The position numbers and the translations under genes are program-made. The notes under the pieces were generated by a model, which saw nothing but the letters and a program-made list of their open reading frames with translations, ran no database searches and was not told the DNA's origin. From Escherichia phage HY01, in the sequence record NC_027349.1: a DNA stretch of 64,000 bases. One strand, written 5' to 3'. Below are positions 15,419-22,239 of this stretch, piece by piece (positions within the stretch are counted from its first letter, which is position 1; each line of letters begins with the position of its first letter).

Positions 15419-15655
15419 TTAACCACCTATTTGTGTAGGCGTAAACATTGCAGCATTCTTAGTTTTCCAATCAGCTGCATCAGAAACTACAGTAGAATAT
15501 GCTGCCTTTTCTGACGGAAAGATCTGATAATGAGAATCTGCGATACGGTGCTCGTTAGAATAAATTTCAAACGGAACAGAAACTTCCATACCTTTAACTT
15601 CTTTGCCTTCACCCGCTGGATGAGTAAAGGTCTTGATGTTAACGAAACCACCCAT
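15419..15655 (-). CDS. soc: small outer capsid protein Soc
   Basis: 78 aa with Soc family motifs (YVNIKTF ... YQxFPSEKAAYSTV); late promoter TATAAATA about 30 nt upstream; diverged from T4 Soc. Confidence 0.85.
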   Translation of the reverse strand: MGGFVNIKTFTHPAGEGKEVKGMEVSVPFEIYSNEHRIADSHYQIFPSEKAAYSTVVSDAADWKTKNAAMFTPTQIGG

Positions 15656-15683
15656 AATAAACTCCTTTATTGTTTAATTACAA

Positions 15684-15695
15684 GTGTATTTATAT
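15684..15695 (-). promoter_or_regulatory. late promoter (TATAAATA) for soc
   Basis: TATAAATA on the minus strand about 30 nt upstream of the soc start; coordinates approximate. Confidence 0.55.
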
Positions 15696-15868
15696 CAGTC
15701 TTCAATGAAAACTTGTGCCAGGAATTCGTGTTCATCTTGAATTTGTTTATATAAAGCCATTACAGCATTTATATTAGAGCTATCTACTTTAAGCTGATAA
15801 GCATACCACTCGTATAAATTAATTAAAGCTTTTTGTCGTCTAATAAATTCTTCTTTGGATATTTTCAT
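15695..15868 (-). CDS. hypothetical small protein
   Basis: 57-aa ORF translated by hand; ATGA overlap with the next ORF; coordinates approximate. Confidence 0.3.
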   Translation of the reverse strand: MKISKEEFIRRQKALINLYEWYAYQLKVDSSNINAVMALYKQIQDEHEFLAQVFIED

Positions 15869-16074
15869 TTTGAATGCTCTATAATTAATTTTAAGGCTTC
15901 TTCACTGACAAAAATTTCATCAGGACCTTCTTCTACAACCCAATCAACCCAATCAACCACACGAAGCTGATTAGATAAGAGCTCACATACGAGCTCCTTG
16001 TCATAATTTTTAAATAGCTGGTCAATACGTTTCTTGCGGGCTTTCTTAAGCTGACGTTTATTTAAACGAGCCAT
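15865..16074 (-). CDS. hypothetical small protein
   Basis: 69-aa basic ORF. Confidence 0.4.
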   Translation of the reverse strand: MARLNKRQLKKARKKRIDQLFKNYDKELVCELLSNQLRVVDWVDWVVEEGPDEIFVSEEALKLIIEHSK

Positions 16075-16592
16075 TAATAACCTCGGTCTTGACGAGCGAA
16101 GTTTTCAGCATTTTTCAGATAATAAAGTTTAAAGATTTCTTCAGCAGTAAGGCCGAGACCTTGGAACATGTTCAGAACGAAATGAAGAATATCAATCATT
16201 TCGAATTTAATTTCCAACTGGTCTTGAGGAGACAAATCAGTAATTAGAGTTTCACGGCGTTCACCATGCTGCGACTTCCAAGGCTTCCATACAGCAGATG
16301 CATCTTTTTCACCATTGCTCATACCACCAAGAGAAGTCAGAAGTTCGCGGAATTCATCATCAATGTAATCTTTCTGATTACGCAGCCAATCAACAACTTC
16401 GCCTGCAGTAGCCAAATCATCAGGATGACGGTTATATTCAGGTTTATCTTTAGCTAAACGAACCTGCAAAGATTTCTGCATATCAAGCATAACTTGCAGT
16501 GGGTCTTTTTCGTCACCGAGAATATCCCAGTATTCATTTTGAGCTTTATCAGCGCCTTCGATCAGTTGCGAGCATTCATTAAAGTAAGCCAT
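16074..16592 (-). CDS. 56: dCTPase/dUTPase (MazG-like NTP pyrophosphatase)
   Basis: MAYFNECSQLIEGADKAQNEYWDILGDEKDPLQVMLDMQ... matches T4 gp56; true start is the internal Met (ORF track extends upstream to 16685). Confidence 0.88.
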   Translation of the reverse strand: MAYFNECSQLIEGADKAQNEYWDILGDEKDPLQVMLDMQKSLQVRLAKDKPEYNRHPDDLATAGEVVDWLRNQKDYIDDEFRELLTSLGGMSNGEKDASAVWKPWKSQHGERRETLITDLSPQDQLEIKFEMIDILHFVLNMFQGLGLTAEEIFKLYYLKNAENFARQDRGY

Positions 16593-16626
16593 TATTTTTC
16601 CTTTCAATTCATGGGTTAGTAGATTA

Positions 16627-16652
16627 ATTATACAATAAATATATAAAGCAAT
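16627..16652 (-). promoter_or_regulatory. MotA-dependent middle promoter for gene 56
   Basis: minus-strand MotA box ATTGCTTTA followed 11 nt later by TATAAT. Confidence 0.55.
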
Positions 16653-16663
16653 AAGGAGGACAT

Positions 16664-16864
16664 ATGGTACAAAAATTAATGGCACTTGTTAATGCCATAA
16701 AAGGTAATAAAAAACGTATAGCTTTTACTATTTCTGCTATGATAGGAATTTTACTCTGGAATTTTGTTTTATCACCAATTGCTATTGCTCATGGTGTTAA
16801 TATTCCAGTAATTACTCTTGATACATTCGTAGATTTAGCATTTGCTTTAGTTGGGTTAATTTAA
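16664..16864 (+). CDS. putative small membrane protein (two hydrophobic segments); only plus-strand candidate
   Basis: 66-aa ORF filling the 56-61 intergenic region, preceded by AAGGAGGA 5 nt before ATG; overlaps a minus-strand middle promoter, so it may be fortuitous. Confidence 0.3.
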   Translation: MVQKLMALVNAIKGNKKRIAFTISAMIGILLWNFVLSPIAIAHGVNIPVITLDTFVDLAFALVGLI

Positions 16865-17889
16865 ATCTTAGCATATTTAGATAGCCGCATTTTAGCCATC
16901 AACCCTTGGGCAATATTATTTTTCATATATTCCATAATTTGTTCAGGGGTTGCACCTTCCTTTCTAATCATATCATTAACATCTTTTGATTTCCAGGGAG
17001 ATTTATCCCAAAACATAACTCTTTCTCCTGCATCAACTAATTTAGTCATTCGTTTAATAGTGTCAGGGTGACGAGGTTCATTATCTAAAACCCATACACG
17101 TCTATCTTTAAATGGAACAATTTCTAAGTCTAATTGACCACCCGTAATAGCTATACCATTTTCAATAAAAAGAGAATCTATAGGTCCTTCTAGAACATAT
17201 ACATCACCATCTTTAACCCGTTCGACTCCATAGATTTTTGTTGCCTCAGGATAAGCTTTGATGGTGATATATTTTTGAGGAGCATCTTTCTTTAATGCAC
17301 GTCCTTGAAAAGACTCAGCTTTTCCATTAGCATTATAAATTGGAATAACAAGACGAGGCTCAGGTATTTCCTTTTTGTATGTTCCTGGTGCTATGCTATT
17401 AACTAATTTAGGCCATTCGGTTGTAAACCAAAGATATTTCCATTTATCCTTTGGAATACAGCGAGCTTTTACATATTTTATAATTGGATGGTCTTCCGCC
17501 AGTTTATCTAATCTAATGCATGACGGAAGAGATTTAATTATTTTCTTCTCAGGTTGTTTAGGAAGTTCTTTAGGTTTTTCTACTGGACGACTTTTACCTT
17601 TTTCTTTTCTTATTTCAAAGATATACTCACGATATAAATCAGGTTCAAACTCCTTTAAATATATTCCTATTGGTGCATGATAGTTACAGTTATAACAGTG
17701 AATATTTCCTTCATTATTATCACCATAATACCATCCACGGGCTTTATTTTGGTCGGTTTTTGAATCTCCACAAACCGGGCATCTAAACCGTAATTTAAAA
17801 GTTGAACTATTATTTACTTGTGTGAATTTAGGTAAATGAGCTAGCGCACGATATGCAAACTCATTATCAATCCAAGGTATTGATGACAT
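16861..17889 (-). CDS. 61: DNA primase
   Basis: 342 aa with N-terminal zinc ribbon CPVCGDS...CYNCNYH and a Toprim domain. Confidence 0.93.
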   Translation of the reverse strand: MSSIPWIDNEFAYRALAHLPKFTQVNNSSTFKLRFRCPVCGDSKTDQNKARGWYYGDNNEGNIHCYNCNYHAPIGIYLKEFEPDLYREYIFEIRKEKGKSRPVEKPKELPKQPEKKIIKSLPSCIRLDKLAEDHPIIKYVKARCIPKDKWKYLWFTTEWPKLVNSIAPGTYKKEIPEPRLVIPIYNANGKAESFQGRALKKDAPQKYITIKAYPEATKIYGVERVKDGDVYVLEGPIDSLFIENGIAITGGQLDLEIVPFKDRRVWVLDNEPRHPDTIKRMTKLVDAGERVMFWDKSPWKSKDVNDMIRKEGATPEQIMEYMKNNIAQGLMAKMRLSKYAKI

Positions 17890-17891
17890 TT

Positions 17892-18056
17892 TTACTCTTC
17901 TTTTTCTTTAGATTCCTCTTTTTTCTTTTTAGGAATCTGCTCAGGACCTTTATTTACTACAGCGCCTGACGTTGTTCCAGTGGAGATATTTTCAGGATTA
18001 CCACCTGAATCTCCAGCGACCATATCTTCTTTGATAAATTCTTTATATGTTTTCAT
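17892..18056 (-). CDS. 61.1: hypothetical small acidic/lysine-rich protein
   Basis: 54-aa ORF translated by hand directly upstream of gene 61; coordinates approximate. Confidence 0.3.
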   Translation of the reverse strand: MKTYKEFIKEDMVAGDSGGNPENISTGTTSGAVVNKGPEQIPKKKKEESKEKEE

Positions 18057-18057
18057 A

Positions 18058-18414
18058 TTAACCTCTATTCATAAAAGCATTAAAAATTTGGTCATCAATA
18101 GATGGAATAACAACCTTTTCGGCATCATTTAACAAATCATTAATTTCATCAGATAGCATAACACGTGTACCTTTATTTCCTGTAATTGTTACTGCACAAT
18201 TACGAACATTTTCTTTATCGAATTTTAGGTTAATATTTTCGTAGTGAAAATCCTTTAATGCCGAATATATTTTTAAAATGAAATTGTCTTTTACTACAAT
18301 AAACCCAACCTCGCTATTAAAACGTGGTTCATGGAAACTGTAATAAACCTTTTCATCTATAAAATCGTATGAAATTTTTTCCATTTTTAAATATGAAAAT
18401 TCAGAACTATACAT
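18058..18414 (-). CDS. hypothetical protein (61.2 position; AdfA-like by synteny only)
   Basis: 118-aa ORF between 61.1 and spackle. Confidence 0.4.
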   Translation of the reverse strand: MYSSEFSYLKMEKISYDFIDEKVYYSFHEPRFNSEVGFIVVKDNFILKIYSALKDFHYENINLKFDKENVRNCAVTITGNKGTRVMLSDEINDLLNDAEKVVIPSIDDQIFNAFMNRG

Positions 18415-18426
18415 ATTAGCCTCTAA

Positions 18427-18720
18427 TTACTCACCTACCACTTCAGCGATGATATTTTTATTATTAAAGTTTTTATCGCAATACAGAACATAATTATACT
18501 GCATTACACCACCAGACTTAAGTTGTTTTTGCACTTCAGCTTTCATTTCAGGACGATCACGCTCAACGATATTCATAATATCTGCTTCAATCTGAGTTTC
18601 AACCTCAGTCTGATCTGCAGTCATAGACCATTCGCACAAATCTTTATCATAACCTGCCATAGCAGGCTGAGCAGCACAAGAAGCTAAAGCAAAAATTGTA
18701 GCAAAAACAAATTTTTTCAT
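18427..18720 (-). CDS. sp: Spackle periplasmic protein
   Basis: 97 aa with signal peptide MKKFVFATIFALASCAAQPAMA; near-identical to T4 Spackle as recalled. Confidence 0.88.
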   Translation of the reverse strand: MKKFVFATIFALASCAAQPAMAGYDKDLCEWSMTADQTEVETQIEADIMNIVERDRPEMKAEVQKQLKSGGVMQYNYVLYCDKNFNNKNIIAEVVGE

Positions 18721-18780
18721 GATAATCTCCTCAGTAGTTTATGTTTATATAGTATCTCAATTTCCAACAAAAGTAAACAC

Positions 18781-19038
18781 TTATTTTAAAACTTCTGCAT
18801 AATCACATGTTACAAACTGTTTCTCTAACTTGACGATTTTACGAAAGTATCTTTTGCATTGGCGAATCTGTCGCTTCGTAGGGCGCGCAGCAAACTTAAT
18901 AAATTCCACTCGACCAAATGGAGGGCTTTCTTCTGCTGGAATATCTAACACCAATTCCCATGTATCCGCAATAAGTGCTTTGAATTGTGTATTTTTCCTG
19001 ATGTTATACGGAGTAGGTTTAAATAAAACCGTATGCAT
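18781..19038 (-). CDS. hypothetical basic protein (61.4 position; TifA-like by synteny only)
   Basis: 85 aa from the internal ATG (MHTVLFK...); the ORF-track start at 19083 is a TTG. Confidence 0.45.
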   Translation of the reverse strand: MHTVLFKPTPYNIRKNTQFKALIADTWELVLDIPAEESPPFGRVEFIKFAARPTKRQIRQCKRYFRKIVKLEKQFVTCDYAEVLK

Positions 19039-19039
19039 A

Positions 19040-19231
19040 TTACCCTCGCCAATCAGATTCAAAAACTTTTTTATCATTAACAAATGCTTTAACTAAAGCT
19101 TTATTAACTTCAGCAAGTTGTGAAGTGACCCATAGAATTTGATCTTTATCAGACACATCCATAGTAATTTCTTTGGTAAACATATTACCATTTTCAAACC
19201 AGCCAATAAAAACAATCTTTGCTAATTCCAT
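19040..19231 (-). CDS. dmd: Dmd-like antitoxin, assigned by position next to gene 41
   Basis: 63-aa ORF immediately downstream of gene 41 with an early promoter upstream. Confidence 0.55.
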   Translation of the reverse strand: MELAKIVFIGWFENGNMFTKEITMDVSDKDQILWVTSQLAEVNKALVKAFVNDKKVFESDWRG

Positions 19232-19289
19232 AACAATCTCCCCATTTAACCAACAAGACTACTATACCATAGTCTTGTCAGTTTGTAAA

Positions 19290-20717
19290 CTAAAATTTTA
19301 ATTCATTTGCTAAAGCATCTAACTGAGCTCGAGTGGATTCGTTTCTTTGATAGCGGTTCTGTTCAGCCTGAATCTGCTGTGAACCTGCTACTTCGTTCAC
19401 TTCAGTTGGAGTAGAATCTTGTTCAATTTCTACCCATTTCTGATTTCCTTTTTGAACACCCATCAAAAACTTATTCCATTTATTCTTATCACCATATCGT
19501 GATTTGATTTGCTTAATGAGTTGTTGTTCAGCCGCTGCTAACTCTTCAGTTTCAATGACCGCAAGCATAAAATCGGCTGTGGCTGGAAGACCGGCAGATT
19601 CTGCAATATCGCTCATGTTAACATCAGAAGAATCCCAAGCTTGTTTACCAACCTGTGCTGCAGTCCAAAGAACAGTTTCGGTTTCAACAGCTAGAGCACG
19701 CAATTCCTCTGCGATAGCTTTAACAGTTGTGTAACTATTTTCTGAATAAACTCTGATGCGGCAAGATTTACAAATACCCAGATAGTCGACAATAATGATT
19801 GTTGGAACAAAATTCTTCTTGAGCTTTAATTCATTTAAAAGGGATCGAAATGTATTAGCGTCTGCTCCACCAGTAGGATACTGTTTAACGATTAAACGAC
19901 CGAGAGTAGATTTCTCACGCCATTTTTCCATTTTTCCTTTATACTCAGCATAAGAAATATGCCCATCATCAATGTCATCAAGAGAAACATCAAGCATATT
20001 AGCGTCAATACGTTTAGCACAGACTTCTTCTGCCATTTCCATGGAAATGTAAAGAACATTATGACCGAGCTGTAAATAATCTGCTGCCAATGAACACAGA
20101 CCTAATGACTTACCAACGTTAACGCCAGCCATTAAAACGTTCAGTGTTCCAGTCTCAGCTCCGCCTTTAGTAATTTTATTTAGAATTTTGAGTTTAAATG
20201 GAACCTTACGAGCTTTATTCATATAAGATAGCCAACGTGCTTCATAGTCATCCATCCAATCATGACCAACGTAACTATCAAATGAAATTGATAATGCTTG
20301 GCGCATGATGTCAGGAATAGCACCAACATCCGGCATTTTCTTATTTCGTTTTTCTGGAGGAAGCTCAGCATTGGTTTGAATTTCAATTATTTTAGATGTG
20401 GCGTTAAACATCGCCCTTTGCTGAACATATTTTTCTGTTTCTTTTACTAACCAGCTGTGGTCTTCCGGAGAATCGGTTAGTTTTGAAATAAGTGTTTTTA
20501 CACCAGAATATTCTGTTTCAGTAAATGAACTATTTTCTAATGCAACATTTAACGCATTAATAGATGGAACGCTATGGTACTCATTAACATGAGATTTAAT
20601 TAATTTGAATGTATTTTTAGCTGGACCACTTTCAAAATATTCTGAATCCATATATGGCCAAACTTTTGAAAAATAAGCTTGATCAAATATGAGATGAGAA
20701 AGAATAATTTCTACCAC
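19290..20717 (-). CDS. 41: replicative DNA helicase (DnaB family)
   Basis: 475 aa with Walker A GVNVGKS and DnaB-like motifs. Confidence 0.93.
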   Translation of the reverse strand: MVEIILSHLIFDQAYFSKVWPYMDSEYFESGPAKNTFKLIKSHVNEYHSVPSINALNVALENSSFTETEYSGVKTLISKLTDSPEDHSWLVKETEKYVQQRAMFNATSKIIEIQTNAELPPEKRNKKMPDVGAIPDIMRQALSISFDSYVGHDWMDDYEARWLSYMNKARKVPFKLKILNKITKGGAETGTLNVLMAGVNVGKSLGLCSLAADYLQLGHNVLYISMEMAEEVCAKRIDANMLDVSLDDIDDGHISYAEYKGKMEKWREKSTLGRLIVKQYPTGGADANTFRSLLNELKLKKNFVPTIIIVDYLGICKSCRIRVYSENSYTTVKAIAEELRALAVETETVLWTAAQVGKQAWDSSDVNMSDIAESAGLPATADFMLAVIETEELAAAEQQLIKQIKSRYGDKNKWNKFLMGVQKGNQKWVEIEQDSTPTEVNEVAGSQQIQAEQNRYQRNESTRAQLDALANELKF

Positions 20718-20726
20718 ACTTACTCC

Positions 20727-21083
20727 TTAAAAGAATTTAAATTTTTTCTTTGACCTTTTATTAAATGCATCTTGTAGTTGCATTGTAATACATTTTTCTA
20801 CATGAGGAGCTAACTCAGCTTTTCTTTCTTGGTCAAGAACAGCAAAGTCCATTACGACTTTTCCATCAACCCAATCTAATTTTGTCACATACACAATGTG
20901 TGTAGAACCATCTTCTAGTTTAATGACAATCTCCTGGATAACATTTTCCATGGCAGATTTAATTATCTTAAGAGATTCATTAAAAAGACGTTCTTTTCTT
21001 TCTTCTTCCCCCTCCGAAGAGGGGGATTCGTCGATAATTTCTAAATCTAAATCATCTTTATTCATTAAATTCTTCCATATCAC
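20727..21083 (-). CDS. 40: gp40-like head assembly protein
   Basis: 118-aa ORF between uvsX and 41; contains an internal GC hairpin. Confidence 0.55.
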   Translation of the reverse strand: MIWKNLMNKDDLDLEIIDESPSSEGEEERKERLFNESLKIIKSAMENVIQEIVIKLEDGSTHIVYVTKLDWVDGKVVMDFAVLDQERKAELAPHVEKCITMQLQDAFNKRSKKKFKFF

Positions 21084-22239
21084 TTAACTGATCTAGGTCA
21101 GTTTCTAAATCAGCTGCTGATTTACTTTTACTTTCTGGAGATTTAAATTTTTCAACCTTTGAGTTAATCAATTCATCAACTTCAGCTTCAACAATTTCAT
21201 TACTATCAATAGCACCTAATTGATAAGCACGTTTAATAGCATCTCGGAATGGCTGATGCTTAAATAAAGGACCCCAGAATGTAGTGCAATTGGTATCTTT
21301 TGCACGCCAAGATTTTTCTTCGCGAATCATCTCGCCGGTTTCTTCATCAAGAAATTCACGAGCATACCAGCCATTTTTAGGTTTTACTACAAATCCTAAT
21401 TCAAGAGCCATGTCTAACAATCCAGAATAAGGATCGATACCACCGTCAAATTTAACATCAATAAAGAATTTACTTTTTTCTTTGACGGTACGAGATTTTT
21501 CTACATTTAGAACAAATTGATACCCCTGAAGATCAGAACCATCTTTAATCTGACGCTTACCGATAATGAATACAGTATCAGCCGAATACATTACGCCTGT
21601 ACCACCTGTCATCACGGTTTTACTAAACATTTCAATTGTTTCAATTGTATGGTTAACCGCAACACATGGAATGTTTTTAATACTAAAATAAGGAGTAACA
21701 ATACGGAATAATGACTTCAGTGATTTAGCACGAGTCATATCTGCCACAGATTTTTCATTCAAGGCATCTTCCGTTTCTTTCTTAGAAGCCATATTACCGA
21801 TTGAGTCGATGAATACAATAACTTTTTCACCGCGCTCAATAGCTTCAAGCTGATTCACCATATCAATTTTCAGTTGTTCAACTGACTGAATTGGCGTATG
21901 AATTACTCGTTCCGGGTCAACTCCCATGGATCGCAAATAAGCTGGAGTAATACCAAATTCGCTATCATAGAATAAACAAACCGCATCAGGATATTTGTTC
22001 AAATACGCCGCAACCATAGTCAAAGACATATTTGATTTAAAGTGTTTAGAAGGACCTGCAAAAATGGTTAAACCAGACTGCATACCACCATCAATCGCGC
22101 CAGAAATAGCGATATTAAGCATTGGGATTTTTGTACGAATTACATCCTTTTCATTAAAGAATTTAGATGTAGTCAGTTCAGCAGTCATTTTAGAAGTGGA
22201 AGCTTTAATCAAACGGGATTTTAAATCTGCAATAGACAT
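21058..22239 (-). CDS. uvsX: UvsX recombinase (RecA-like)
   Basis: 393 aa with Walker A GPSKHFKS; C-terminal half matches T4 UvsX as recalled, N-terminal part diverged. Confidence 0.93.
   Translation of the reverse strand: MSIADLKSRLIKASTSKMTAELTTSKFFNEKDVIRTKIPMLNIAISGAIDGGMQSGLTIFAGPSKHFKSNMSLTMVAAYLNKYPDAVCLFYDSEFGITPAYLRSMGVDPERVIHTPIQSVEQLKIDMVNQLEAIERGEKVIVFIDSIGNMASKKETEDALNEKSVADMTRAKSLKSLFRIVTPYFSIKNIPCVAVNHTIETIEMFSKTVMTGGTGVMYSADTVFIIGKRQIKDGSDLQGYQFVLNVEKSRTVKEKSKFFIDVKFDGGIDPYSGLLDMALELGFVVKPKNGWYAREFLDEETGEMIREEKSWRAKDTNCTTFWGPLFKHQPFRDAIKRAYQLGAIDSNEIVEAEVDELINSKVEKFKSPESKSKSAADLETDLDQLSDMEEFNE

Follow-up and report, generated by a model that had tools for sequence, protein, structure and literature searches.

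The 64,000-nucleotide (nt) stretch of Escherichia phage HY01 analyzed here (NC_027349.1; hereafter the window) carries five small genes between the DNA primase gene (gene 61) and the replicative helicase gene (gene 41). Gene order and sequence similarity indicate that this interval is very probably the 61.1-61.5 cluster of early genes conserved among T-even phages, in a T2-like configuration. The neighborhood itself is an already known feature, present in a deposited genome, and is ordinary. The group formed by dmd, tifA and adfA between genes 61 and 41 was published in 2022 as an 'anti-TA island' (TA, toxin-antitoxin; Srikant, Guegler & Laub, eLife, PMC9391042), and follow-up studies have since dealt with the mechanisms of TifA and AdfA and with the existence of AdfN (PMC10853763, PMC11825919). 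Relative to T4, two gene-sized cassettes of the interval appear to have been swapped by recombination: adfA is absent while a short gene is present, and dmd is a foreign allele. The three island genes are consequently not all found together in the window, which holds dmd and tifA with a short paralog in the place of adfA. Judged by homology, dmd and tifA are the only supported counter-defense genes among the five.

Gene content and relation to T4 and T2

The interval runs from the stop of the 61.1 homolog to the start of dmd (positions 17892-19231). Positions 17700-19400 are 100% identical to Escherichia phage PEC04 (KR233165.1, Tequatrovirus), whose isolation host was E. coli O157:H7, and 90-95% identical to several hundred further T4-like phages. 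Five minus-strand open reading frames (ORFs) lie between gene 61 and gene 41, all of which are annotated coding sequences in PEC04. The ratio of nonsynonymous to synonymous substitution rates (dN/dS) of the five ORFs was 0.06-0.27 when calculated against homologs from T4, T2, SHBML-50-1, RB69 and VR25. This range indicates purifying selection, and the ORFs are therefore genes and not chance reading frames.

An earlier sequence-only reading of this stretch had placed five small genes between genes 61 and 41 and had equated the interval with T4 61.1-61.5. The positions and sizes that it gave for the ORFs were all correct, and the equation is borne out both by the order 61 / 61.1 / X / sp / 61.4 / dmd / 41, which is common to the window, T4 and T2, and by the similarity of the ORFs to T4 proteins. 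That reading also held that only Spackle was recognizable by sequence, which was wrong, as every ORF is significantly similar to some T4 protein. Pairwise protein comparisons used the annotated T4 record as reference. The BLASTP comparison that it had proposed paired 61.1 (96% identity), TifA (95%) and Dmd (67%) with their T4 counterparts, whereas the 118-amino-acid (aa) ORF matched only part of AdfA. Pfam or PHROG family matches above threshold were obtained for 61.1, Spackle, TifA and Dmd, and PADLOC and NCBIfam gave zero matches for any of the five proteins. The activities that it named for the T4 genes, namely Dmd against RnlA/LsoA, TifA (61.4) against ToxIN and AdfA (61.2) against DarT, agree with the published work (PMC9391042, PMC10853763, PMC11825919). 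The description of the interval as dense in counter-defense holds for dmd and tifA, two of the five genes, and not for the remainder of the named content: Spackle is a superinfection exclusion protein and gp61.1 is without known function.

The likeness to the T4 island extends to position, strand and gene order, to flanks with 95-97% nt identity, to the 61.1, Sp and TifA proteins (95-98%) and to an early promoter upstream of dmd-tifA. Unlike T4, in which the body of adfA measures 580 nt, the window has a body of 323 nt that belongs to a shorter gene of another kind, and its dmd is a foreign 63-aa allele with 67% identity. T2 (NC_054931) is closer in arrangement. Its genes 61.1 / short 118-aa ORF / sp / 61.4 / dmd are colinear with the window over 3.7 kb at 95% identity, and its short protein is 93% identical to that of the window. 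T2 differs in that its dmd is of the 60-aa T4 type; in its record, moreover, the short gene is begun at an internal codon and measures 327 nt.

A predicted single-module AdfA paralog in the 61.2 slot

The 118-aa protein encoded between 61.1 and sp shares homology with the C-terminal module and tail of AdfA. Full-length AdfA proteins (about 208-216 aa; RB69 AdfA, T4 gp61.2) cover the whole Pfam profile PF23813, whereas the short protein lacks the N-terminal module and aligns to profile positions 113-211 of 211, with a score of 33 bits against a cut-off of 27. BLASTP against the 208-aa T4 gp61.2/AdfA gave 36% identity over AdfA residues 109-208 only, and the first 20 residues of the short protein have no AdfA counterpart. 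Two separately built alignments, one of short-family proteins (116-125 aa) from several T4-like genera and the other of full-length AdfA proteins, were compared with hhalign. The comparison gave 98.2% probability (E 3.7e-14) over the C-terminal half of AdfA only. The two proteins thus have in common a genomic slot, about 100 homologous C-terminal residues and the tail DDQIFNAFMNRG, which is identical in the short protein. These comparisons place in the 61.2 slot of the window a predicted single-module paralog of the AdfA C-terminal half and not adfA.

The distribution of the two genes bears on their relationship. The 118-aa protein was detected by tblastn at at least 90% identity in 291 phage records, including T2, RB14, RB27, PP01, AR1 and wV7, while full-length AdfA was present in 487. 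Some phages, such as vB_VIPECOOM01 and SHBML-50-1, carry the tandem arrangement 61.1 / 118-aa gene / adfA / sp. The slot between 61.1 and sp does not, therefore, hold versions of a single ortholog: about 154 records, and likewise the comparison loci L003 and L005, have the short gene beside a full adfA, and for this reason it is considered a paralog and not the adfA ortholog. Searches with 191-bp junction probes found the short gene-sp junction of the window, which is also that of T2, in about 139 records and the short gene-adfA junction in about 154, both counts being approximate and set by BLAST coverage thresholds. The window arrangement is thus a common one. In nucleotide sequence, the window and T4 are colinear as far as window position 18102 and again from position 18426, and the 323 nt between these points form the body of the short gene, which has no T4 counterpart. 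In phages with both genes, blastn shows adfA inserted precisely at the window junction 18425/18426.

Relatives of 116-125 aa with 39-49% identity occur in Gaprivervirus and other T4-like phages. The family is small, as only three clusters were obtained when 1.84 billion representative proteins were searched exhaustively with HMMER; a word-indexed search returned five. We also compared the two halves of AdfA with each other. The N-half and C-half gave E 1.2e-3 and 19% probability in hhalign and no match in BLASTP, and the short family against the AdfA N-half gave E 3e-3 and 10% probability. AlphaFold2 arranges both AdfA halves in the same order (five strands, helix, strand), in a model of AdfA that is itself weak (predicted local distance difference test, pLDDT, 63). 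An internal duplication of AdfA, with the short protein corresponding to one repeat, is suggested by these results but not established.

DarT1 and the location of adfN

The residue that governs DarT1 binding by AdfA has been located in the C-terminal half. RB69 AdfA gains the ability to bind DarT1 through the escape substitution R164H, and the T4 protein carries a histidine at this position (H165) (PMC11825919). The short protein has no histidine there; the aligned residue is Asn72 according to MAFFT and hhalign and Cys73 according to BLAST. T2 provides a second line of evidence. It "naturally lacks an adfA homolog", and neither T2 nor T4 forms plaques on DarTG1 cells once adfN (gene 30.3) has been removed (PMC11825919). 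Since T2 carries a short gene whose product is 93% identical to that of the window, the short protein is therefore not protective against that DarTG1 at native expression. By this analogy, an anti-DarT1 activity of the short protein is not supported.

An adfN gene is present in PEC04, outside the window (KR233165 110597-111055; L025:8598-9056). It is intact and full length, its product is 95% identical to T4 AdfN and scores 230 bits against Pfam Phage_30_3, and residues E36 and K43 are kept. The GenBank record of PEC04 leaves the gene unannotated, in a 447-nt gap between the 30.4 and 30.2 homologs. Protection of PEC04 from DarTG1 would thus be expected from adfN. By analogy with AdfA, the short protein would most likely be a stoichiometric binder of some host protein, probably one other than the E. 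coli DarT1 that has been assayed to date.

A C-terminal tail common to three protein families

The motif S[IV]DDQIFNAFM[NK]R[GD] stands at the C-terminus of AdfA, of the short-family proteins (116-125 aa) and of VR25_038, a 145-aa protein of Gaprivervirus VR25. In addition to the window copy, the loci concerned are L003:1850-1898 and, in VR25, L007:2059-2496 and 2498-2857. Across genera the tail codons differ synonymously while the peptide is invariant, which argues for constraint on the peptide. The final tail codons, AGA GGT, double as the Shine-Dalgarno sequence of 61.1. Where adfA and the short gene occur together, each is closed by the 49-bp tail, which is thus a direct repeat; recombination across this repeat would remove the short gene and produce the T4 arrangement. 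AlphaFold2 predicts the tail as a helix on a floppy linker. It could be a common interaction handle. No other occurrence of the motif was found in the 64-kb window, and in IMG/VR it was found in 16 stretches only, nearly all on contigs of 51-172 kb, which are of T4-like genome size.

Two further ideas about the tail were considered and dropped. VR25_038 was rejected as a free-standing AdfA N-half, its alignment being limited to the 14-16-residue tail. A resemblance of the tail to clamp-binding motifs is not claimed, as the tail fits their consensus poorly.

A rare dmd allele

The gene next to gene 41 encodes a Dmd homolog. It scores 94.1 bits against Pfam Dmd (PF17587; cut-off 27), with residues 1-63 covering profile positions 1-60 of 60, belongs to phrog_2102 (E 8e-35), and matches PDB 5hy3_B and 5i8j_A with E values of 1.8e-22 and 1.8e-21. 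Its position is also that of dmd, as it is the first gene downstream of gene 41, lies behind a promoter-like site and is followed by 61.4. These features, the full-length family match and the place behind the early promoter, are shared with T4 Dmd (5HY3 chain B, with LsoA) and RB69 Dmd (5I8J), and 31 of the 63 positions are invariant across the T4, T2, RB69 and window proteins. The window allele is distinguished from those of T4, T2 and RB69 by an identity of only 65-70%. It is 67% identical to T4 Dmd, from which it differs by three residues inserted mid-protein, and in the MAFFT alignment 65% identical to RB69 Dmd, with which it shares its length (63 aa) without being closer in sequence.

Nearly all Tequatroviruses carry the 60-aa T4-type dmd. 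The 63-aa allele was found at at least 95% identity in 23 of the 797 dmd-carrying phage records, including RB9 and vB_EcoM_SP1, and the nearest alleles beyond this identical set are those of Mosigvirus LH01 (85%) and Gaprivervirus VR25 (75%). In blocks of 30 nt, nucleotide identity falls to 50-87% inside dmd, compared with at least 93% in the flanks. The synonymous divergence (dS) from T4 is 1.0 for dmd and 0.10-0.16 for 61.1, sp and tifA, a difference of 6-10-fold; the dmd allele was therefore most likely imported by recombination. By homology with the T4 and RB69 proteins, Dmd would serve as a surrogate antitoxin that binds the HEPN ribonuclease toxins RnlA and LsoA, so that middle and late phage mRNAs are spared.

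Such divergence raises the question of whether the allele alters antitoxin specificity, for example through tuning to the toxins of the isolation hosts, whether LsoA-type or otherwise of the RnlA family, instead of K-12 RnlA. The low identity to T4 with its mid-protein insertion, the rarity of the allele, a dS that points to import from another lineage and the closest other alleles residing in Mosigvirus LH01 and a Gaprivervirus are all consistent with this idea. The invariance of 31 of 63 positions and a dN/dS of about 0.2 speak instead for a conserved function. T4 Dmd, moreover, inhibits both RnlA and LsoA, and RB69 Dmd has been studied as an RnlA binder. We regard altered specificity as possible, with the odds against it.

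A T4-type tifA

The product of gene 61.4 is 95% identical to T4 TifA over 85 aa and matches Pfam DUF7279 (PF23945) with 71.8 bits (cut-off 24.5) at the expected length. It differs from the T4 protein by four conservative substitutions, I3T, V13I, V51A and I83V, of which V51A lies beside the basic motif. The residues required for RNA binding and ToxN inhibition, P53, T54, K55, R56 and R59 (PMC10853763), form a basic helix and are all present in the window protein. Residue 41 lies at the predicted ToxN interface, where F is weaker and S or H is stronger (PMC10853763); the window TifA has F41, the T4-type weak allele. The near-identical TifA proteins of T2, T4 and T6 all inhibit ToxN (PMC9391042), and the window protein resembles them in its 85-aa length, F41, the RNA-binding motif and a C-terminal extension that RB69 TifA lacks. 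TifA would bind both RNA and ToxN and trap ToxN in an inactive ribonucleoprotein. The weak F41 allele implies, by homology, that this TifA should overcome toxIN at chromosomal level and not high-copy or plasmid-borne toxIN.

Alternative explanations

The reading of the short gene as an intact single-module paralog has to be weighed against other accounts of the same ORF. It is highly improbable that it represents a 5'-truncated adfA pseudogene, decaying and without function. Such an origin would fit a protein that is the counterpart of only half of AdfA, and it would fit the treatment of T2-type phages in the literature as being without adfA. The gene, on the other hand, begins with an ATG of its own, is preceded by an AGAGG ribosome-binding site, keeps its identity across the 291 records and has relatives of similar length in other genera. 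Its dN/dS is 0.08-0.21 (0.12 against VR25), the AlphaFold2 model is compact (pLDDT 83), and its N-terminal 20 residues are not a remnant of anything matched in AdfA. It is likewise unlikely that the ORF is this phage's own AdfA, the positional equivalent of T4 61.2 that neutralizes DarT by binding. This assignment, which the sequence-only reading had made by synteny, would account for the occupied slot, for a Pfam score above cut-off and for the retention of the region that holds specificity residue 164 together with the C-terminal tail. Against the assignment stand the half-profile match, the Asn or Cys found where DarT1 binding needs His (PMC11825919), the coexistence with full-length adfA, which marks a different gene, and T2, which with only the short gene becomes DarTG1-sensitive once adfN is deleted.

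An intact paralog may still have a role in counter-defense. The short protein might act against another host toxin, either a different DarT homolog or an unrelated system, with adfA, the short gene or both serving as interchangeable specificity cassettes. Homology to a known toxin binder, residence in an island with dmd and tifA (PMC9391042), a mosaic presence and absence in three configurations and a tail conserved at the peptide level are all in keeping with this explanation, and T4 AdfA itself has been proposed to target 'some other DarT homolog' (PMC11825919). We consider it possible, with the odds somewhat against it. A broader version would make the 116-125-aa proteins (phrog_4122 and relatives) an unrecognized counter-defense family of single-module toxin binders that act through the invariant C-terminal helix DDQIFNAFM. 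The same helix ends AdfA and a 145-aa family of this slot that is otherwise unrelated, and the three families would be swapped as specificity cassettes by recombination at the 49-bp tail. This broader proposal is speculative and seems to us unlikely, if not implausible.

Several points weigh against our overall interpretation of the interval as a T2-like cluster with two supported counter-defense genes. The activities given here are all taken from homologs, and for Dmd, whose binding of RnlA and LsoA is presumed from sequence, the two studied proteins are only 65-70% identical to that of the window. The junction counts, as stated above, depend on coverage thresholds. The case against an anti-DarT1 activity of the short protein is indirect, being drawn from T2 as a proxy, at native expression and with one DarTG1 system. 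T4 AdfA is likewise without a native-level phenotype, yet it works when overexpressed (PMC11825919).

Expression, neighboring genes and flanking regions

The 58-nt gap between gene 41 and dmd contains a promoter-like site of the T4 early type on the minus strand (Table 1). An early promoter of the T4 dmd-tifA operon has been described at the equivalent site (PMC9391042), and by this analogy the window site presumably drives dmd-tifA. As in T4, host RNA polymerase would initiate at this site, which directly follows gene 41, and transcribe dmd and tifA as one unit. No intrinsic terminator was found, and an Rfam scan of positions 16500-21000 found no RNA family.

Spackle matches PF25676 over its full length with 151 bits, carries a signal peptide and is 98% identical to T4 Sp. 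Among solved homologs, PDB 6x6o spans the entire protein, whereas 7cn6, the mature chain, begins at residue 23. Spackle would be exported to the periplasm and block the tail lysozyme of superinfecting T-even phages. Its signal peptide contains a lipobox-like L-A-S-C at residues 12-15, which is probably the source of the PEC04 label 'lipoprotein lipid attachment domain'. Because solved mature Spackle starts at residue 23, this label appears to be an annotation artifact.

The gp61.1 homolog is conserved and no function can be assigned to it. Its dN/dS against T2, SHBML-50-1 and T4 is 0.00-0.16, and its core, EDMVAGDxGGxPxxIxxGTTxGAVVNKGPEQIP, is invariant in Tequatrovirus, Mosigvirus and Gaprivervirus and is followed by a variable Lys/Glu-rich end. 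RB69 gp61.1 has 92 aa with an extra N-terminal extension. The PEC04 name for this protein, 'putative major capsid protein', is spurious.

The 61-41 interval is highly plastic across genera. In RB69 (15500-22000) it contains imm, imm.1 and four extra ORFs. In Gaprivervirus VR25 the 61.4 (tifA) homolog adjoins 61.1 and not dmd; the dmd-tifA operon arrangement is therefore not universal. T4 has a dam methyltransferase gene between its genes 56 and 61 (T4 locus L001:1-935), to which nothing in the 64-kb window corresponds. At the dam position only the T4 spacer (L001:726-935) matches, at 16653-16860, and a conserved 66-aa ORF occupies the plus strand at 16664-16864. A related record assigns this ORF to phrog_2024, and Pfam gave no match for it.

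Table 1 Features of the gene 61-gene 41 interval and its boundaries in window coordinates
Feature	Positions	Strand	Evidence
Gene 61, DNA primase, 342 aa (lower boundary)	16861-17889	-	97% nt identity to T4 gene 61 region; PEC04 and T4 annotation; weak Pfam DNAG_N match
Gene 61.1 homolog, 54 aa	17892-18056	-	96% identity to T4 gp61.1; phrog_1823, E 7e-34
49-bp segment encoding the shared C-terminal tail ...SIDDQIFNAFMNRG and stop	18054-18102	-	Second blastn match to adfA tails in L003, L005 and RB69
Short AdfA-like protein, 118 aa, T2-type 'gp61.2', phrog_4122	18058-18414	-	Pfam AdfA 33 bits, partial; hhalign
12-nt spacer with AGAGG ribosome-binding site of the 118-aa gene	18415-18426	-	Sequence read; blastn breakpoints against L003 and L005
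sp (Spackle), 97 aa, signal peptide residues 1-22	18427-18720	-	98% identity to T4 Sp; Pfam T4_Spackle 151 bits
tifA-sp intergenic region, weak early-promoter-like GTTTAC...TACTAT/TATATA	18721-18780	-	Sequence read; 9/12 consensus at 18747-18719; putative promoter
tifA (gene 61.4), 85 aa from ATG, T4-type allele	18781-19038	-	95% identity to T4 TifA; Pfam DUF7279
dmd (gene 61.5), rare 63-aa allele, 3-residue insertion	19040-19231	-	Pfam Dmd 94 bits, full length
Predicted early sigma-70-type promoter, (G)TTTACA-N17-TATAGT, upstream TG	19261-19289	-	10/12 consensus; sequence read
Gene 41, replicative helicase, 475 aa (upper boundary)	19290-20717	-	95% nt identity to T4; Pfam DnaB_C 64 bits

Implications

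Annotators should not label the 61.2 slot of T4-like phages AdfA on synteny alone, as it occurs in three configurations: adfA, the short paralog, or both. Anti-DarT1 activity has been shown only for full-length adfA alleles with His at 164. The suggestion of the sequence-only reading that variants at this locus may change counter-defense specificity can reasonably be applied to the two gene-sized cassettes, the 61.2 slot and dmd. In phage therapy and host-range prediction, PEC04-like O157 phages may be expected to have a rare Dmd allele, a T4-type 'weak' TifA and AdfN encoded elsewhere, and no AdfA. The locus would serve as a textbook example of cassette exchange within an already described accessory-gene island.

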